Positions 57,111 through 63,967 of a DNA stretch of 64,000 nt are shown piece after piece. Position 1 is the first letter of the stretch; the number at the start of each line of letters is the position of its first letter. The DNA comes from a virus: positions 1-64,000 of the IMG/VR virus record IMGVR_UViG_3300005613_000035; one strand, 5' to 3'. The notes beneath the pieces were generated by a model, which was not told where the DNA came from, made no database searches, and saw only the letters and a program-made list of their open reading frames with translations. Position numbers and translations under genes: made by a program.

Positions 57111-57566
57111 TTAGATCTCCTCTTTAAAATTTTTAGTTTTTAGGTCTTTAAGGTTGTTATCCTCTTGTTTTAAAAAATCATCATACCAGATTCTATATGA
57201 ATCTTCTGGCCTATCATAAGTTGATGCCTCTATAAATTTGGCTACTTGCGAAAAAGATTTGAATCTATGAAGCACTCCGGGTTTAATTTGAAAAGAATCA
57301 CCAACATTTAAAAACATAGATTTTATTTTACAGTCTGAATCTACTTTCTCTAATAATAAAATTCCAGATATAACAAAAAAGGTCTCTGTTTTCTGCAAGT
57401 GGTAATGAAATTTTCCGCCTGAAGAAAATTTATTATTTGTACATACTAAAAGTTTACCACAATAGTTTGCCTCTCGATCATTCTCAAATACTATTTCATA
57501 CCCCCAGTCTTTCATAATCTTTTGTTGTTGCAATAGTACCTCCTTTTTATTAACAGTTGGAATCAT
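57111..57566 (-). CDS. Cupin (sugar isomerase-like)
   Basis: KDWGYE, YCGKLL, HYH..K.ETF, PGVLHRF, EAST...DSYR. Confidence 0.82.
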   Translation of the reverse strand: MIPTVNKKEVLLQQQKIMKDWGYEIVFENDREANYCGKLLVCTNNKFSSGGKFHYHLQKTETFFVISGILLLEKVDSDCKIKSMFLNVGDSFQIKPGVLHRFKSFSQVAKFIEASTYDRPEDSYRIWYDDFLKQEDNNLKDLKTKNFKEEI

Positions 57567-57850
57567 TTACCATATTTGTGTTTCTCAAGTATTTTGATAG
57601 CAGAATTTAATTCTGACCTACCCCAAAAACAAGATACACCTGCGGCTTTTCTAAGTCTTTCAGATGCTAAGTAGTTAATAATAATGTCCTTGGCTATTTT
57701 TAAGACCCAAATGCTGATACATGACCAGCAAGTCCCAAAAATAATAGTTGGAAGATATTGTAAAATTATCCACCAAATACAAAGCTCTTTTGTGGATTCA
57801 CCAACCTGTTCTAACATTGTAATCATTTCTCTTACTATCTCTATGTCCAT
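57563..57850 (-). CDS. Membrane protein
   Basis: Central hydrophobic helix; GGAG RBS. Confidence 0.6.
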   Translation of the reverse strand: MDIEIVREMITMLEQVGESTKELCIWWIILQYLPTIIFGTCWSCISIWVLKIAKDIIINYLASERLRKAAGVSCFWGRSELNSAIKILEKHKYGK

Positions 57851-57925
57851 AACAGTCTCCTTTTTATTAATAAATATAACGTTTTTAATTAGCCACCCAG
57901 CTTTTGGATACTACCTTTGATAGCC

Positions 57926-59239: not shown

Positions 59240-59268
59240 AGTATACTCTATTAAATACTATTTGTCAA
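59240..59268 (-). promoter_or_regulatory. Sigma70-type promoter
   Basis: TTGACA-17 bp-TATACT on the minus strand. Confidence 0.72.
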
Positions 59269-59641
59269 GTGCTTTTAATAGCCTTTTGTATATTTCTAAA
59301 AAGTTATCTAAATCCATTATTATTACAGGGTCAACATGATTCTTCTTGCAGATTAATGCCCAATATCTTCCTGCTTCCTGGTTCAATTTTGCTTGCTTTA
59401 TCCATGTTAATACTGACCATTTTTCCTGATTCTTGCATTCAATATCTAATAGAATTAATTGTTTAGCTTTACCATACAGCTTTATATCACGTCCTGCCTG
59501 CCCCATTTCTCGTGATTCTATCTCCTTATCTTTACCCCAAGAAATACCTGTAAGTTCTGATAATTTTTTACATACAAGTTTTTGAAGGTTACGCCCCTTT
59601 GCTTTCCTGCTTTTAATTGATATACTTTTCTTTTTAGCCAT
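59258..59641 (-). CDS. Holliday junction resolvase-like PD-(D/E)xK nuclease
   Basis: KAKGRNLQ, MGQAGRDI, IECKNQE. Confidence 0.82.
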   Translation of the reverse strand: MAKKKSISIKSRKAKGRNLQKLVCKKLSELTGISWGKDKEIESREMGQAGRDIKLYGKAKQLILLDIECKNQEKWSVLTWIKQAKLNQEAGRYWALICKKNHVDPVIIMDLDNFLEIYKRLLKALDK

Positions 59642-59660
59642 ACATTCCTCTTTAACTAAA

Positions 59661-60086
59661 TTATTTAAGCCTCCAATTTATTGGACTATCTGGAGTATAA
59701 AAGTTGAAGAGTTGGTGTTTATGGAATCCCCCACTTTTGAAAGGCGTACATAATAAGTCTTTCAAAATAGTTGATATTTCAGGAATCGTTTCTTTATATG
59801 TCTGCTTTCCTACCCTACTATCTGATAATAATAGCCATTCTTCTGGGTCTATGTCTGGTATATCCACAGCTTCAAGTTCGTGTTCCTCAATTCGGATAAG
59901 AGCAAGAGGGAACGCGTAAGTATAGCAGTTCCATTCTTCATCCCACATAGAATTTTCAATTGGACGAGGTGGAATATTCTGTGCCCAATCATGAAGAATC
60001 TTGACCATTTGGCAGCGCCGAAACTTTGGTTCTCGCATATTATCGTCCCTCACGGTTGCGTCTTTTATATTTTGGTCTTTTATCAT
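59661..60086 (-). CDS. Hypothetical protein
   Basis: ORF in the minus-strand run. Confidence 0.55.
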   Translation of the reverse strand: MIKDQNIKDATVRDDNMREPKFRRCQMVKILHDWAQNIPPRPIENSMWDEEWNCYTYAFPLALIRIEEHELEAVDIPDIDPEEWLLLSDSRVGKQTYKETIPEISTILKDLLCTPFKSGGFHKHQLFNFYTPDSPINWRLK

Positions 60087-60151
60087 GTTTATGCTATTGC
60101 CTTTTAGATTTGTTATATAGATTTAACATTCCGATGTTATGATGGTAGTTC

Positions 60152-60337
60152 TCAATCTTTCCATAAAGCTAAATCCTGGATAATAAAATCAATTTGGTCG
60201 TCCTTACCACCTTTAATATGGACTTCATCCTCTTCTTGGTTTAATGGGACAATTTCCAAAAAAGCTCCATGCGTCATAAAAACGTTCTCGATATCTTTTT
60301 TTAAATCCTTTTCAAATTGATTTAATTTTTTTGCCAT
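60152..60337 (-). CDS. Hypothetical protein (cassette-like)
   Basis: Starts right after GTTAGGAGG, which is both a core site and the RBS. Confidence 0.65.
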   Translation of the reverse strand: MAKKLNQFEKDLKKDIENVFMTHGAFLEIVPLNQEEDEVHIKGGKDDQIDFIIQDLALWKD

Positions 60338-60348
60338 ATTTCAACGCC

Positions 60349-60468
60349 TCCTAACGTTTTAAATAAGCGGGTCCACGGTTTTTTCACAGGGACCGAACCC
60401 TGACCGCCCAACCGTAAAACGTCTTGAGACCCGCTTGTGTTCCGCACAAATGCAGCGGCTTGTTAGTC
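60349..60468 (-). mobile_element. attC-like integron recombination site (120 bp)
   Basis: GACTAAC-AAGCC-GCTGCA ... AAGCGGGTC/GACCCGCTT stem ... AAAAC-GTTAGGA. Confidence 0.72.
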
Positions 60469-60663
60469 ATTAAACATAAATAATGACCCTTCATCATCGT
60501 TCCTTGGATCATATTCTTTCCAGTCATTTCGCTTCTGACCTTCTATTGGAACCCTTTCCTTTAAGGGTATTGTATGATTTTTCCAATGTTTTATTTCTGG
60601 AGTGGATTCACGATATATTGCACTCCGAACGTGACAACATTTTACTACGCTTTCAAAATCCAT
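60463..60663 (-). CDS. Hypothetical protein carried on an integron-type cassette
   Basis: AGGAG RBS; stop codon lies inside the GACTAAC inverse core. Confidence 0.75.
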   Translation of the reverse strand: MDFESVVKCCHVRSAIYRESTPEIKHWKNHTIPLKERVPIEGQKRNDWKEYDPRNDDEGSLFMFND

Positions 60664-60693
60664 AATTAATTTCTCCTATGACTAACGTTTTAA

Positions 60694-60993
60694 TCAGCGG
60701 TGCATCGCTATTGCCATACAACCCTCATGGTTGACCTCAGGGCCTTGACCACAGATTTTACACTGGCTTTCCGCATCTGGGGAATTCAAATATAATTTGG
60801 CAAATACCGGACACCATCGTTTCATAACCTCATACGTTTCCGGCGCAAATGTATTATCATCCTCACCATATAACCTTCCAACCAATATAAGTATATCAGA
60901 TTTCAATTCGCGCATTTTGTCCTGACAATCGAAAATATGATCATCCTTTTCGTCATGTGTCTTGCCAACAAAATTCCGATCTTCAAGTTCCAT
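60694..60993 (-). CDS. Hypothetical protein (cassette-like)
   Basis: Starts after GTTAGGAGGC; ends in an attC-like right arm. Confidence 0.65.
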   Translation of the reverse strand: MELEDRNFVGKTHDEKDDHIFDCQDKMRELKSDILILVGRLYGEDDNTFAPETYEVMKRWCPVFAKLYLNSPDAESQCKICGQGPEVNHEGCMAIAMHR

Positions 60994-61024
60994 TCTAAGC
61001 CTCCTAACATGGAATTAACGGGCT

Positions 61025-61381
61025 TTAGTCCTTGTTAAATTCCAATTCGCAATCATTACAGTTCATATAGGTCATCTGGCATAGATCAGATGTCGAAGGT
61101 ATAGTTATTGACGACCCATAATCTCTGGGCTTCAATTCATATTGTCCTTGGTCAGGATCGGCGCGATACCCAAATTCTACCTCAGGTATCTGCAACTCGG
61201 TTACTGTTCCGGCGTCTATGTCCATGCAGTATAATTGTCCGGTGTACTCGTTTGATAACTCATTAAACTTCCAAAGCATAACAGTAGCGGCCTCCGGTGA
61301 ACCTACATGCTTCACAAGTGGTTGAAAGTCAATGTCTGATCCCCCTCCGTTTAAAAACATTAGTAGAATGAATATTTTCAC
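61025..61381 (-). CDS. Hypothetical protein
   Basis: AGGAGG RBS; higher GC. Confidence 0.6.
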   Translation of the reverse strand: MKIFILLMFLNGGGSDIDFQPLVKHVGSPEAATVMLWKFNELSNEYTGQLYCMDIDAGTVTELQIPEVEFGYRADPDQGQYELKPRDYGSSITIPSTSDLCQMTYMNCNDCELEFNKD

Positions 61382-61459
61382 TTTTTACCTCCTTATTTTA
61401 TCCATTTTATAAACCAACCATAAATAACAGCTTGTCGTTCCATATAACATCTCTACCAC

Positions 61460-61900
61460 TCATCCCGAAGTATCTCGATATTCCAATGTACCTCCAGTTA
61501 TCGGTATTATCATCCTCTTCCAAAACTCTGCCCACCTTCCAGAATTAAACCAGACTTGTTCTACTCCTAACTTATTAGGCAATCCAAGAGTGAATGCACC
61601 CATACCATCAAATTCTTCTAAAAAGCTTTCCTTTGTAAATCTATTAAGTGGACAAAGAAAATTTAAGCAACTTTTTGCACGGTCACAAACTCCAGATTTT
61701 GGTGCTACATTTATAGTAACCACCATAAGCATATTCTTATAATCCTTTGGGGTTACGCCAAAAATTAATTCACTGTAACTACAAATTCCATAATAAAATT
61801 TGGAATATACGGTTTCAGGCTTGAATATGCACTGGCCATTAACCCATGTAACACTGGCAGAAATTGAATCTGGTAATATTATATTTTTTTCATGTGCCAT
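61460..61900 (-). CDS. Hypothetical protein
   Basis: GGGAG RBS; C..C..CP motif. Confidence 0.65.
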   Translation of the reverse strand: MAHEKNIILPDSISASVTWVNGQCIFKPETVYSKFYYGICSYSELIFGVTPKDYKNMLMVVTINVAPKSGVCDRAKSCLNFLCPLNRFTKESFLEEFDGMGAFTLGLPNKLGVEQVWFNSGRWAEFWKRMIIPITGGTLEYRDTSG

Positions 61901-62074: not shown

Positions 62075-63967
62075 TTAATTCCTATTGGCTATCCTTGATA
62101 CACCATCTTCCATACTAACTTCTATAACATTTGAAAATGAGTCTGCTATACCTAAATCATGTGATATAACAAATATAGTATCTAACTCATTAGCTTTATT
62201 TTTTAGTAGCCGTATCACATCCTGTTTTCCATTTTCATCAAGGCTGAGTTCAAGAATTTCGTCAAGGAAGAGAAAGCTAAAACGACCTAATAAAGAATTG
62301 AAAGCAATCTTATCAGCAATTGCAACTCTTTGTCTTTGGCCTCCTGAAAATGACCAATAATCCGTTATTGTTTTATCAGGGCTGAATACTTTGTAGCTCA
62401 CCTTTTCTCTTACATCCCCAGATTTTGTTTGTGCTTGGGAATCTATACTTACACATAAGTTATCAGATATACTACTTAATATAGAATTGGTAGCTATTTC
62501 AACACTCTCTAAAAAAGTTTCAGCCCTCATATTTGGAATCCCAGATTTACCAAAAGCTATTTTAAAGAATTTGTAGTACTTCAAATCTTCATATAATTCT
62601 TTCAACTCTTTCTTCAAGACATCCAACTCTAATTTCTTACTATCTTTTGCTTTATGTTTATCATTTATTAACTTAATGTATGGATTTTCTTCGCTTTTTA
62701 TTTCTTTTATTCTATTCAAGCACTCCTGTATTTTTTCCTCCTTAACTTCAATTTTATATTCAATTTGTTTTATAGAGCTGACTACATTAGTTATTATATC
62801 TTGCTTGCTTTTAATACGTTTCTCTTCCTCCCTAATAGACTCTTTAAAATCCATATTACAATATTGAATTGCATCTATACTGTCCAGCTCGTGAGACAAC
62901 TCCTCACATGTATACCAGAGTTTGTCATATTCCCCCTCTGCTTTTTTCAGAATAGTATTATATTGCTGACATGTATCTCTACTGTTTTCTTCCAACTTAT
63001 CACAGAATACATGAAGCACAGGACATGTATAATTGCTTATAGTGTCTAAGTCTTCCTTTATTCTATCTATTTCAGATGATATTCTTGACATTTTAATCTT
63101 TATATCAGTTATTTCTTTATTATATTCTTTGTGTTTATCTGAATCATATGGCTTTATTAAACCTTGTAACTTAGCTATGTTATCATTAATACTATTAATA
63201 TCTTTTTTAGCTTGCTTTTTATTCGCAACAAGCTTATTTATAATATGTGTAAAATCTTCAGTCTCTATTTCTTTAATTTCTTTATTTATATTTTCAATCT
63301 TCAGCTTGTTATTTGCAATCCATTCTTTCTTATTATTCTCCAACTCTAATGTCTCATCTACAATATCTTTAATGAACTCTTTTATATATTCTATCTTTAT
63401 ATTAATGTCATGTATATTAGTATTAGTTTCTTCTATCTTATTCTTTGCTGCTGTATAGTATGTGTGATACTTATGTAAGTCTAATGCATCATATATAATT
63501 TTCTTGCGGTCACTTTCCTTAGCTTCGGGAAATGAAGGAGAACTCTGTGAAAAGATGGTGCTGATACCTAATATATCTTTGTTAATTCCAAAATATTTAT
63601 TTATATTCTTTTGAGTTTCCCGACGATCTGATTCTGTATGTGCTTCTTCATTATTATTTATAGAAAATATAGTTTTATTTCCATATGTCTTATGTTCCCG
63701 ATACTTTAATATTTTAATTTCATTATCACCATGTTGAAATACACAACCAAGCTCACAGTTTCCTTCTTTATTGAACGAAAATTCTCCCAGATCGTTTAAT
63801 TCGGATGTAGTGTCTGTAAGTAAGTATTCAATAGCGAGTCGAATGGTTGTCTTCCCAAACCCATTTTTGGCAGCTATAAGTACCAAACCCAAAGTATCTA
63901 TATCTTTTAGATGAAAGTCTTTGTAAGACCTGAAATTTTTGAACCACAACTCTTTTAGAACAAACAT
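62075..63967 (-). CDS. SbcC/Rad50/T4 gp46-like recombination ATPase
   Basis: KNFRSY, Walker A KNGFGKTT, coiled coil with CPVL..C hook, FSGGQRQR, FLDE, SH. Confidence 0.92.
   Translation of the reverse strand: MFVLKELWFKNFRSYKDFHLKDIDTLGLVLIAAKNGFGKTTIRLAIEYLLTDTTSELNDLGEFSFNKEGNCELGCVFQHGDNEIKILKYREHKTYGNKTIFSINNNEEAHTESDRRETQKNINKYFGINKDILGISTIFSQSSPSFPEAKESDRKKIIYDALDLHKYHTYYTAAKNKIEETNTNIHDINIKIEYIKEFIKDIVDETLELENNKKEWIANNKLKIENINKEIKEIETEDFTHIINKLVANKKQAKKDINSINDNIAKLQGLIKPYDSDKHKEYNKEITDIKIKMSRISSEIDRIKEDLDTISNYTCPVLHVFCDKLEENSRDTCQQYNTILKKAEGEYDKLWYTCEELSHELDSIDAIQYCNMDFKESIREEEKRIKSKQDIITNVVSSIKQIEYKIEVKEEKIQECLNRIKEIKSEENPYIKLINDKHKAKDSKKLELDVLKKELKELYEDLKYYKFFKIAFGKSGIPNMRAETFLESVEIATNSILSSISDNLCVSIDSQAQTKSGDVREKVSYKVFSPDKTITDYWSFSGGQRQRVAIADKIAFNSLLGRFSFLFLDEILELSLDENGKQDVIRLLKNKANELDTIFVISHDLGIADSFSNVIEVSMEDGVSRIANRN

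Follow-up and report, generated by a model that had tools for sequence, protein, structure and literature searches.

Near one end of the DNA analysed here (the window; 64,000 nt, positions 1 to 64,000 of IMG/VR record IMGVR_UViG_3300005613_000035), three consecutive small genes on the minus strand begin just downstream of related motifs that carry GTTAG. The locus raises the question whether these junctions stem from integron cassettes taken up by a phage or whether they belong to a different kind of repeat. Our data indicate that it is probably a short, decaying cassette array of the integron type (SALIN/CALIN-type) residing in a phage, with no integrase gene in the record.

Setting and gene content of the locus

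The record comprises 81,188 nt of an uncultured phage, was obtained by metagenome assembly and has an estimated completeness of 56%. The locus is situated in its early/accessory region. As had been predicted, it is GC-richer than its surroundings, values of 0.36-0.40 being found in intervals of the region 59501-61500 and of approximately 0.28-0.33 in the flanks. Phage genes lying on the same strand adjoin this block on both sides.

None of the five small proteins matched Pfam or PHROG, and a protein atlas provided low-confidence function leads alone. The family of the 99-aa protein consists of 10 members with variable C-termini and was not found in species-representative genomes, while for the 61-aa protein one near-identical protein only was detected. 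Since GTTAG bounds the 99-aa gene on both sides, it was regarded as a cassette-like unit. The 66-aa gene is the cargo of the sole cassette with both boundaries remaining, a unit of 331 nt between direct repeats. PF00589 yielded no match in the whole 81-kb record, the positive controls having responded, and a tyrosine recombinase is thus absent from this 56% complete sequence. A search for tRNA genes was negative, and the idea that the GC-rich spacer is tRNA-like was therefore dropped; as an RNA, the spacer folds unremarkably (z -1.5). The features of the locus are compiled in Table 1.

Table 1. Sites and genes of the locus (R1, R2: covariance models)
Feature	Position	Strand	Remarks
118-aa orphan gene, first of the GC-richer block	61025..61381	minus	ORF; no Pfam/PHROG match
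Site A, possible collapsed attC	61004..61039	minus	R2 11.7 bits, E 0.4 in 7 kb (61013-61040)
99-aa gene	60694..60993	minus	ORF; GTTAG at both ends
Site B, predicted attC right arm (L'-spacer-R', 60700-60682)	60680..60736	minus	R1 13.4 bits; R2 12.3 bits
66-aa gene, putative cassette cargo (cassette 60685-60355)	60463..60663	minus	ORF; conserved family
Site C, predicted near-complete attC	60349..60468	minus	120 nt, both arms
61-aa gene	60152..60337	minus	starts 14 nt past the R' core of site C

Two of the junctions share a long word

All four stretches named in the original prediction, the motifs at sites A, B and C and a further element at 60142-60112, were located on the minus strand exactly at the predicted positions. 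The claim that the three junction motifs are related held firmly for sites B and C and weakly for site A. By scanning both strands of the 81,188-nt record, the pattern CCGCT[GT]ATT[TA]+AAACGTTAG was found in two copies, at 60700 (site B) and 60370 (site C). The shared word has a length of 19-20 nt and spans 60700-60682 in B and 60370-60351 in C. When the 45-nt upstream regions were compared in 5778 pairs, B-C ranked 8th, whereas A-C and A-B came 162nd and 3148th, respectively. For a degenerate 20-mer with up to three mismatches, 0.02 occurrences were expected by chance in the window; this ungapped search matched site C alone. Sites A and C have GTTAGGAGGC in common. The word GTTAGGAGG occurs twice (61008 and 60355) versus 0.33 expected occurrences, and two were reached in 5 of 100 shuffles. 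Its recurrence is mildly unusual at most, and the greater part of the word is a Shine-Dalgarno sequence. In IMG/VR the B/C motif had no exact match, nor did the attC core word match anything in IMG/VR or in genomes.

Site C is predicted to be a near-complete attC

The original prediction assumed that left arms had been eroded, leaving mere junctions. This is not the case at site C, which by its sequence is a near-complete attC with both arms. Its R'' box CTAAC (60466-60462) contains the TAA stop codon of the 66-aa ORF and is followed by a 17-nt hairpin insertion (60458-60442), L'' (60436-60428), a variable middle, L' (60373-60365), a 9-nt spacer and R' GTTAGGA (60355-60349). L'' and L' form a perfect 9-bp pair around a 54-nt middle that folds into further stems, AAGCGGG of L'' pairing over these 9 bp with the flank of L'. 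The consensus of R'' is RYYYAAC. That of R' reads G|TTRRRY (Qi et al. 2023, PMC9892861), and the AAC/GTT triplets of the attC cores are conserved according to Cury et al. (2016). Each of the two cores of site C (GACTAAC ... GTTAGGA) agrees with the consensus at six of seven positions, and CTAAC and GTTAG are complementary over 5 bp. Thus, the site possesses inverse R cores, an L''/L' repeat around a variable middle and a position immediately after an ORF on the same strand, the stop of this ORF lying inside R'' and the next ATG 14 nt past GTTAG.

The left arm of site C harbors CTAACAAG, with the stop codon of the ORF within it (P at that distance 0.0022). For the 9-nt inverted partner a chance of 0.0013 was calculated, and the left-arm features together have a chance of approximately 3e-6, provided that they are independent. 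In a MAFFT alignment the left arm fell on the consensus of the attC family described below, with a gap of 16 nt. The bottom-strand fold gave a z of -2.7. When the window was searched together with L097 and L070 by use of model R2, site C was the sole match, as it was for the record as a whole, and covered the full model on the gene strand alone (17.7 bits; E 0.19 for 83.5 kb, 0.016 for a local search of 7 kb). The narrow model R1 did not recover any part of its left arm. Site C also departs from the canonical attC: its spacers are unequal (25 nt including the 17-nt hairpin on the left, 9 nt on the right), its L stem is perfect and lacks bulged bases, and in the minimum-energy fold the R box remains without a pairing partner. 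A canonical site on the metagenomic contig L091 does show the expected bulges. The unpaired central spacers (UCS), which in attC sites are short and about equally long left and right, and the extrahelical bases (EHB) of the L box have a role in strand choice. Both are named as attC features in the legend of Fig. 2 of Cury et al. (2016).

Site B and perhaps site A are more strongly reduced

Judged by its letters, site B is an attC reduced mainly to the right arm. It has GTTAGTC as R' and overlaps the 99-aa gene at the stop codon, its left arm being at most vestigial, with GTCAAC (60735-60730) as a weak R'' candidate and an L pairing of 3+3 bp. Local searches gave E-values of 0.1-0.3 for this site (0.29 with R2). 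Site A may, weakly, represent a third, collapsed attC. It consists of TTTAAC-AAG over the end of the 118-aa ORF, a diverged stretch resembling a right arm and a GTTAG fused to the Shine-Dalgarno sequence of the 99-aa gene. Its cores read TTTAAC ... GTTAGGA, and an inner L''/L' repeat was not found between them.

The stretch 60142-60112, which had been interpreted as a collapsed element as well, could not be confirmed. Neither covariance model matched it at E<=10 with the filters switched off, its first heptamer misfits RYYYAAC, and the record contains, both strands taken together, 23 instances of the loose pattern NNNNAAC-N6-10-GTTRRRY. The element looks like a chance product. Nor did the models match anything in the spacer following the 61-aa gene.

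IntegronFinder retains attC sites at E<1 (Cury et al. 2016), and by default IntegronFinder 2 calls a CALIN where at least two attC sites lie less than 4 kb apart on one strand. With our own models, site C was recovered at E<1 in a search of the whole record and sites B and A in local searches of 7 kb. These models were self-built and are not those of IntegronFinder or HattCI. According to the tool itself, their E-values are rough. The scores within the window are weak (C 17.7, B 12-13 and A 11.7 bits) compared to the 27-80 bits of true array sites (R1), and the share that the right arm contributes to them is circular, because the models were built from contigs fished by the right-arm motif of the window.

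A widespread attC family has the shared word as its right arm

The exact B/C pattern was present on 63 metagenome contigs. Model R1, which was built from 9 short sites, matched over the motif at E<=1 in 43 of them, 42 times at full model length and once cut by the contig end (L047). About 36 further model matches (table count) lie elsewhere in the same contigs, which are thus cassette arrays; L091, for example, contains four motif sites within 2.9 kb. An alignment of 29 sites, for which 33 distinct listed sites were available, disclosed the invariant positions AAC...CCGCT.ATT..AAAACGTTAG and a conserved left arm TAACAAg.AAAT.AAG. From this sequence comparison we concluded that the B/C word represents the L'-spacer-R' portion, and thus the right arm, of attC sites belonging to a widespread family. 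The predicted attC ancestry of the junctions was thereby corroborated, since this right arm is invariant in many attC sites of metagenomes. The locus likewise agrees with a small cassette array, the record containing no integrase.

A crude score of arm complementarity was too noisy to class the metagenome matches, and a strict left-arm regular expression, which accepted 19 of 66 matches, was too narrow; classing was therefore redone from the flanks and the covariance model. Inspection by eye was imperfect, for it dropped 21 of the 63 loci, of which three (L042, L066 and L055) later matched the model, and one later run took 40 loci picked among those with matches. In 596 Gb of genomes, 20 copies of the exact motif were detected versus a chance estimate of approximately 26, and by eye 8-9 of the 20 were attC-like. 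Hence, the motif alone proves nothing.

The gene content of a related contig changes partly at the cores

Phage records resembling the locus were not obtained by blastn of 3.1 kb or by tblastn of a family member. Within IMG/VR, no usable relative of the locus was reached through the dNMP-kinase/HAD gene, the SbcC-like ATPase, the 99-aa protein or its family alignment. A contig of another metagenome (L070), however, has the 118-aa and 99-aa genes, site B and the attC core in common with the window at 84-92% identity. Identity within the 118-aa gene is 84% over 267 nt from the 5' end, whereas its 3' end and the spacer show no relationship (24%). For the block 61006-60681 it amounts to 84% (273/326), or to 95% (273/287) if a 39-nt indel is disregarded.

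The prediction that gene content breaks at G^TT could be examined at the four breakpoints between the window and this single relative, and it was partly borne out. Site B is identical through GTTAG, and right past it the sequences diverge, an unrelated 76-aa gene replacing the 66-aa gene in L070. At site A, homology restarts at TAGGAGG, 1 nt inside G|TT. The two other breakpoints lie around the core of site C and do not coincide with G^TT: in L070 both R boxes of this site are lost, whereas the inner L''-L' part remains, and the sequence past the core is unrelated to the 61-aa gene. As far as can be read from the sequence, the breakpoint at site B fits recombination by an integrase at G|TT.

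Relatives of the 66-aa gene lie beside attC sites in other phages

The 66-aa family was represented by 15 proteins in one search and by 31 loci in another; at most of the loci it is a phage gene without an adjoining attC. In L009, a member resides between two of five evenly spaced attC matches (E 4e-5 to 1.5e-3) of a sequence family different from that of the window, and the repeat flanking the gene is the L'' part of successive attC sites. The phage contig L027 carries a member directly before an attC match, again of differing sequence. Altogether, the family adjoins attC sites in three phage contigs that are unrelated to one another (GC 33%, 43% and 55%), each time with attC sites of another sequence family. 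Beside its array, one of these contigs encodes an Xer-like recombinase, not IntI. The broader model R2, run over 277 kb of other phage loci, matched L027 and L009 only; this run covered 27 of the 32 loci L002-L033, L005, L012, L020, L024 and L029 having been left out as duplicates or fragments.

Weighing of other explanations

The repeated word might be a regulatory signal of the phage that recurs ahead of consecutive early genes, e.g., a conserved ribosome-binding context, a translational operator, a promoter/stem-loop cassette resembling the PeSL of T4 or an RNase site, and its likeness to attC arms would then be coincidental. It would suit this explanation that the junction motifs lie 11-18 nt upstream of start codons, that two of them include a Shine-Dalgarno sequence, and that in L006 three consecutive small genes, the first of them a member of the 66-aa family, share a junction word with a Shine-Dalgarno sequence at a locus where no attC match was obtained. 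However, the word is present at only 2 of about 108 gene starts of the record, the usual context there being an A-rich AAGGAGG. Promoter-like sites were not enriched (18 vs 12.8 +/- 4.4), neither these nor terminator-like sites were found at the junctions, and Rfam gave chance-level matches alone with no fitting family. A coincidence is improbable also in view of the dozens of bacterial-type attC sites that have this very word as right arm together with matching left arms, and of the left arm possessed by site C itself.

Regarding the 19-20-nt direct repeats that bound the 331-nt unit around the 66-aa gene, a target duplication or a recombination scar left by transposition, homing or illegitimate recombination at microhomologies has to be considered, the more so as a 19-nt perfect direct repeat flanks the gene of the same family in L006 without an attC. 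A target duplication would not be expected to produce a letter-perfect arm of an attC family, plus a left arm and an L box on one side. Moreover, the corresponding repeat in L009 belongs to attC sites, and in the unit of the 66-aa gene neither a transposase nor a homing-endonuclease gene was detected by Pfam and PHROG. We consider this origin very unlikely. Still slightly less credit is due to an artefact, i.e., chance similarities or a chimera in which phage DNA was joined to that of a bacterial integron. The GC-richer block within a metagenome assembly would be compatible with a chimera, but in the independent contig L070 site B and the attC core, together with the genes of the 118-aa and 99-aa proteins, are linked to other genes, the block is flanked by same-strand phage genes on both sides, and the low joint chance of the left-arm features of site C, for which independence was assumed, argues against mere coincidence.

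Proposed origin of the array

Under the preferred explanation, an integron-type cassette array in decay, the 66-aa gene and site C would constitute one cassette, delimited on the left by G|TTAG of site B and on the right by the attC with R''/L''/L'/R'. A second unit would be formed by the 99-aa gene, whose attC has been cut mainly to the right arm at site B, and site A perhaps is a third, collapsed site. An integron-type tyrosine recombinase may have acted in trans, supplied by the host or encoded on the missing 44% of the phage. It would fold the bottom strand of attC and recombine at G|TT, placing the cassettes head to tail, each with its own Shine-Dalgarno sequence, so that downstream genes start a few bases past the GTTAG core. 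Such an adjacency of GTTAG and the next gene is ordinary for cassettes, because the next ORF of bacterial arrays begins 8-30 nt past GTTAG and L039 and L062 likewise read GTTAGGAGG. Subsequent decay probably proceeded by deletions and insertions within the hairpins, affecting the left arm of B, the interior of A, site C by its 17-nt insertion and the R boxes in L070, and could have turned mobile cassettes into ordinary fixed phage genes. The sequences themselves show that the motifs descend from attC sites, that the genes are laid out as cassettes, that the window and L070 are mosaically related and that the 66-aa gene returns beside attC sites in other phages, whereas the catalyst of insertion, any present activity of site C and the fixation of genes through decay are matters of inference. 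In the same way, the erosion of left arms may have fixed cassettes, and GTTAGGAGG may serve as crossover site and Shine-Dalgarno sequence at once.

Together, the locus and L070 offer a series of states in which a site keeps both arms, its right arm or its inner L''-L' part or, perhaps, has collapsed. Provided that scars of this kind are recognisable, integron-type recombination could account for some of the unexplained mosaicism of small genes in phages. That one family of small phage genes recurs with three attC families is of interest for the making of cassettes and for their exchange between phages and bacteria. A wider generalisation, namely that phages regularly use attC-type recombination to gain small accessory genes and fix them afterwards by hairpin decay, is possible, if rather doubtful. 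If it were true, either different hosts or phages would rebuild cassettes around one and the same ORF, a point that touches the question of cassette origin, or attC sites would be homogenised to the resident array after transfer. The junctions of GTTAG and Shine-Dalgarno sequence at A and B would then be scars of this route which standard attC finders pass over.

Comparison with known systems

Environmental sedentary chromosomal integron arrays (e.g., L091, L065, L057 and L053) carry the same attC family; MAGs of Ectothiorhodospiraceae and other Gammaproteobacteria are among the carriers. They agree with the phage in the identical right arm CCGCTKATT(N)AAAACGTTAG, in the left arm TAACAAG.AAAT.AAG-CGGAC and in the order of an ORF followed by an attC on the same strand. 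Their sites measure 55-102 nt, show the canonical fold (z -5.5 for a site of L091) and score 27-80 bits, whereas those of the phage are degraded. A search of these arrays for the cassette proteins of the phage was negative.

Phage morons and mosaic regions of small genes have reportedly been described by Hendrix and colleagues. Morons are defined by a promoter and a terminator of their own. As in this locus, they are small accessory genes of foreign composition between backbone genes that vary among close relatives; unlike in morons, the boundaries here are derived from attC, and no promoter or terminator signal stands out.

According to Loot et al. (bioRxiv 10.1101/2022.09.11.507474), a SALIN comprises a CDS and a single attC, with neither an integrase nor a further att site in the vicinity. 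The 66-aa ORF and site C correspond to this if B and A, as scored by our own model, are counted as remnants; a complete integron would have intI, attI and the promoter Pc beside the array, and the record lacks a tyrosine recombinase. Loot et al. propose domestication through deletion of attC hairpins by replication slippage, which matches the decay series seen here and in L070. The SALIN data they present concern bacterial chromosomes with GWT insertion sites unlike att sites, whereas here the left boundary is an attC right arm. This points to an insertion of the attC x attC kind, with an older cassette as target, and less to an attG event.

Phage CALINs with attC sites recombinable by IntI1 are reported in section 3.4 of Qi et al. 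(2023, PMC9892861), and GTTRRRY motifs at the boundaries as well as mosaicism are also described there for phage CALINs. Like the locus studied here, these CALINs consist of co-oriented small genes that are separated by attC sites and encode cargo of unknown function, and their contigs lack intI. The sites of Qi et al. were assayed for recombination, while ours were predicted by our own covariance models and not by IntegronFinder or HattCI. Compared to the CALINs reported there, the present locus retains one near-complete site with a 17-nt insertion and otherwise right arms or less. Integron cassettes in phages are thus already known, and a single instance is unsurprising to the specialist. 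The locus adds a documented phage cassette case in a decayed state that standard attC finders might well miss.

Genomic setting of the locus

The 81,188-nt IMG/VR virus record, the first 64 kb of which constitute the window (GC content approximately 33%), carries virion genes on the plus strand and, from about 48.5 kb, a long run of small genes on the minus strand. Here, five small genes encoding proteins of 118, 99, 66, 61 and 141 aa lie between the genes of an SbcC-like ATPase and a PDDEXK/RusA-like nuclease (see Table). As had been predicted, this block is richer in GC (0.36-0.40) than both flanks (0.28-0.33). Searches of Pfam and PHROG gave no match for any of the five proteins, and a tyrosine recombinase was not found in the 81-kb record, which is estimated to be 56% complete.

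Table. Features of the locus and of the contigs compared with it
Feature	Position	Strand	Description
SbcC-like ATPase gene	62075-63967		one flank of the locus
PDDEXK/RusA-like nuclease gene	59258-59641		other flank of the locus
Site C	60468-60349	minus	5' to 3' on the gene strand: CTAAC (enclosing the TAA stop of the 66-aa gene), AAG, 17-nt hairpin, AACAC, AAGCGGGTC, 54-nt middle with further stems, GACCCGCTT, 9-nt spacer, GTTAGGA
118-aa gene, 5' part			84% identity to L070
118-aa gene, 3' end and spacer			unrelated to L070
TAGGAGG via 99-aa gene to GTTAG of site B	61006 to 60682		84% identity to L070; 95% excluding the 39-nt in-frame indel
66-aa gene slot			different, unrelated 76-aa gene in L070
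Inner attC part	60437-60364		92% identity to L070
Sequence past the core			unrelated to L070
In-frame indel, 39 nt	~60943-60981	minus	near the 5' end of the 99-aa gene
Membrane-protein gene remnant	61407-61459	minus	intact in L070 (885-1076)
Weak model match	57874-57925	minus	ahead of gene 57563-57850
L009 array region	L009:4861-7763		five attC-model matches, one strand
L027 matches	L027:1801-8647		five attC-model matches
L091 array	L091:178-2491		four attC sites
L006 locus	L006:5960-6420		66-aa family member between direct repeats
L007 locus	L007:5940-6330		66-aa family gene with GC-rich flanks

Motifs at the gene junctions

The original prediction had placed three related motifs ahead of the genes for the 99-aa (site A), 66-aa (site B) and 61-aa (site C) proteins, the letters and coordinates of which were confirmed in the sequence. 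The pattern CCGCT[GT]ATT[TA]+AAACGTTAG (the B/C word) has two copies in the entire record, one at each of sites B (60700) and C (60370); a search of both strands found no other. GTTAGGAGG was found only at sites A (61008) and C (60355), with 0.33 occurrences expected, a count that was also reached by five of 100 shuffles and is hence just mildly unusual. Among 5778 pairs of 45-nt upstream regions drawn from a crude gene set, the pair B-C ranked 8th in similarity, A-C 162nd and A-B 3148th. Hence, B and C are clearly related, as claimed; site A is tied to C mainly by its ribosome-binding site.

An attC family behind the B/C word

An exact-pattern scan of the metagenome collection for the B/C word yielded 63 contigs. 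In 596 Gb of genomes, 20 occurrences were detected against approximately 26 that we would expect by chance, and by eye only eight or nine of the 20 resemble attC sites. By our own estimate, tens of chance occurrences of a word of this size are expected in collections that large. Since chance predicts similar numbers, the count alone is uninformative. Most of the metagenome matches, however, are preceded at a distance of 30-80 nt by TAAC-AAg.AAAT.AAG-CGGAC, in which an inverse core is followed by a spacer and then by an inner repeat that can pair with the CCGCT part. In an alignment of 29 metagenome sites AAC, CCGCT, ATT and AAAACGTTAG were invariant; these sites have the anatomy of an integron attC (R''-spacer-L''-variable middle-L'-spacer-R'). 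Of the 63 contigs, 43 gave a match over the motif with a covariance model trained on nine short sites (R1; E<=1). This match spans the full model length in 42 of them and is cut by the contig end in L047. The model also disclosed about 36 more sites without the exact word elsewhere in the same contigs (own count of the table). Several contigs contain five to seven sites and L091 has four motif sites in 2.9 kb; the next ORF begins 8-30 nt past GTTAG. The R1-matched contigs are cassette arrays. From the flanks, the R1 matches and the array layout we therefore concluded that the B/C word is the right arm (L'-spacer-R') of a widespread attC family, whose carriers include MAGs of Ectothiorhodospiraceae, other Gammaproteobacteria, a deltaproteobacterium and a cyanobacterium. 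GTTAGGAGG was also read in two metagenome contigs (L039 and L062). In L091, about 100 nt of near-identical sequence precede each of the four sites, and this array seems to hold paralogous cassettes.

Sites A, B and C

MAFFT matched the left arm of site C to the consensus of the family, accommodating the insertion by a gap of 16 nt. The chance of finding its 8-mer at that distance is about 0.002 and that of the perfect 9-nt inverted partner about 0.001, both features being independent of the word used for fishing. When the whole record and L070, a relative of the locus, were searched with a broader model built from 56 sites (R2), site C was the sole match; it lies on the gene strand and spans the complete model. 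It scored no more than 17.7 bits, with E 0.19 for the 83.5 kb searched and 0.016 for 7 kb. Both models are home-made, their right arm is circular as regards the window, and their E-values are rough. The narrow R1 did not recover the left arm of site C at all. As single-stranded DNA, the bottom strand of site C folds better than shuffles (z -2.7), with the L box and the middle paired, an L stem devoid of bulged bases and the R box unpaired in the minimum-energy fold; a canonical L091 site gave the expected fold (z -5.5). We read site C as a true attC by descent that is atypical in design.

Site B is a right arm, and its L' encloses the stop of the 99-aa gene. In both models, GTTAGTC of this site is paired with a GTCAAC that lies 50 nt upstream within the ORF; the scores were 12-13 bits (local R1/R2 searches, E 0.1-0.3). 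The inner repeat of site B is down to a 3+3-bp vestige. At site A, TTTAACAAG at the end of the 118-aa ORF is followed by a diverged right-arm-like stretch and by GTTAG fused to the Shine-Dalgarno sequence; with 11.7 bits (E 0.4, R2) it is a possible attC remnant. The Shine-Dalgarno sequence, for which a double use as crossover site had been suggested, lies immediately past the core, where a cassette normally has its own ribosome-binding site, and does not constitute a special signal with two uses. Nor could the predicted "collapsed" element at 60142-60112 be upheld: neither model reports it, and the record contains 23 instances of the loose pattern to which it conforms. A weak model match at 57874-57925 (8.7 bits, E 2), ending in ATTAAAAACGTTAT, is probably due to chance.

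Comparison with L070

L070, a 2246-nt contig from a different metagenome recovered via the motif scan, was the sole relative compared. In the alignment, segments similar to the locus alternate with unrelated ones as in a mosaic, and the comparison shows that the arrangement did not arise through misassembly. The breakpoint at site B lies immediately past the invariant GTTAG, the point where the cassettes in the 29-site alignment start to differ, and that at site A 1 nt inside G|TT. Neither of the two breakpoints around the core coincides with a GTT, and both R boxes are lost in L070. Thus, the anticipated change of gene content at GTT was borne out in L070 at site B and, within 1 nt, at site A, but not at the core.

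Some further differences were noticed. Owing to the 39-nt indel, the L070 version of the 99-aa protein has 86 aa; a small membrane-protein gene is reduced in the window to a remnant by a deletion and a frame change, and the 146-aa gene upstream has no counterpart in L070. P0023 (135 aa), from another assembly, combines an N-terminal part like the 76-aa cassette protein (L070 1738-1968) with the conserved core of the 99-aa family, indicating that these neighbouring small genes occur fused too.

The 66-aa family

Fifteen proteins of this family were found, in which CHVRSA is invariant; the closest members end with SLFMFND. Its loci, 28 in IMG/VR and three in bacterial genomes (two Rhodobacterales, one Marinobacter MAG), vary in GC content from 28 to 64%. 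Applied to 27 of the loci (277 kb), R2 with default filters gave matches in L009 and L027 only and detected no site in the other 25. With filters off, L009 (IMG/VR, GC 55%) revealed five sites on the gene strand, spaced by approximately 330-350 nt (E 4e-5 to 1.5e-3). With their ACAAC...GTTGT cores, these sites represent another sequence family, and the 66-aa homologue resides exactly between the last two. A convergent Xer-like tyrosine recombinase gene (PF00589+PF02899) is located 375 nt past the array; its product, with 41.7 bits, falls far below the IntI cut-off of 265 bits. A 13-nt "direct repeat" flanking the homologue turned out to be the L'' part of these attC-type sites. Upstream, a DnaB-like helicase gene was seen.

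The phage contig L027 carries genes for NinB, a replisome organizer and a terminase. Its matches lie between co-oriented small genes, all on the opposite strand (reversed cassettes). One directly follows the 66-aa homologue; this site, in contrast to the other four, was part of the R2 training set. Counting the window, this small gene thus has attC-type sites as neighbours in three phage contigs that are unrelated to one another.

In L006, a family member lies between copies of a 19-nt perfect direct repeat including the Shine-Dalgarno sequence, with an 11-nt third copy at the next gene start. This region gave no attC-model match and may reflect a different insertion route for the same gene. 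The GC-rich stretches in L007 (219-kb viral contig, 39% GC) look by eye like an imperfect inverted repeat of about 29 nt.

Origin of the locus and known precedents

Sites B and C descend from attC, and the locus has the layout of cassettes, with an ORF, an attC and the next ORF a few bases past GTTAG, on one strand throughout. At the GTTAG of site B, the cargo differs between the locus and L070. We suggest that the 66-aa cassette entered an older right arm (site B) at its G|TT through an integron-type recombinase that acted in trans. If the left side of B were joined to the right side of C, a plain 99-aa/61-aa junction would result. The hairpins would since have been undergoing loss through deletion and insertion.

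According to Qi et al. (2023, PMC9892861), phage genomes, including those of virulent phages, contain integrons and 17 CALINs, and IntI1 recombined five of six tested phage attC sites with attI1. IntegronFinder 2 needs two attC sites before it calls a CALIN, and concedes that a lone site can be real; single cassettes are named SALINs by Loot et al. (bioRxiv 10.1101/2022.09.11.507474). In view of these publications, the locus is a further, degraded case of a kind already described. What it adds is modest: a series of decay states, a cargo that differs in the sister contig L070 at the R' core, and one phage gene family beside three different attC families. The hairpin decay envisaged here parallels that proposed by Loot et al. 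for genome-inserted cassettes.
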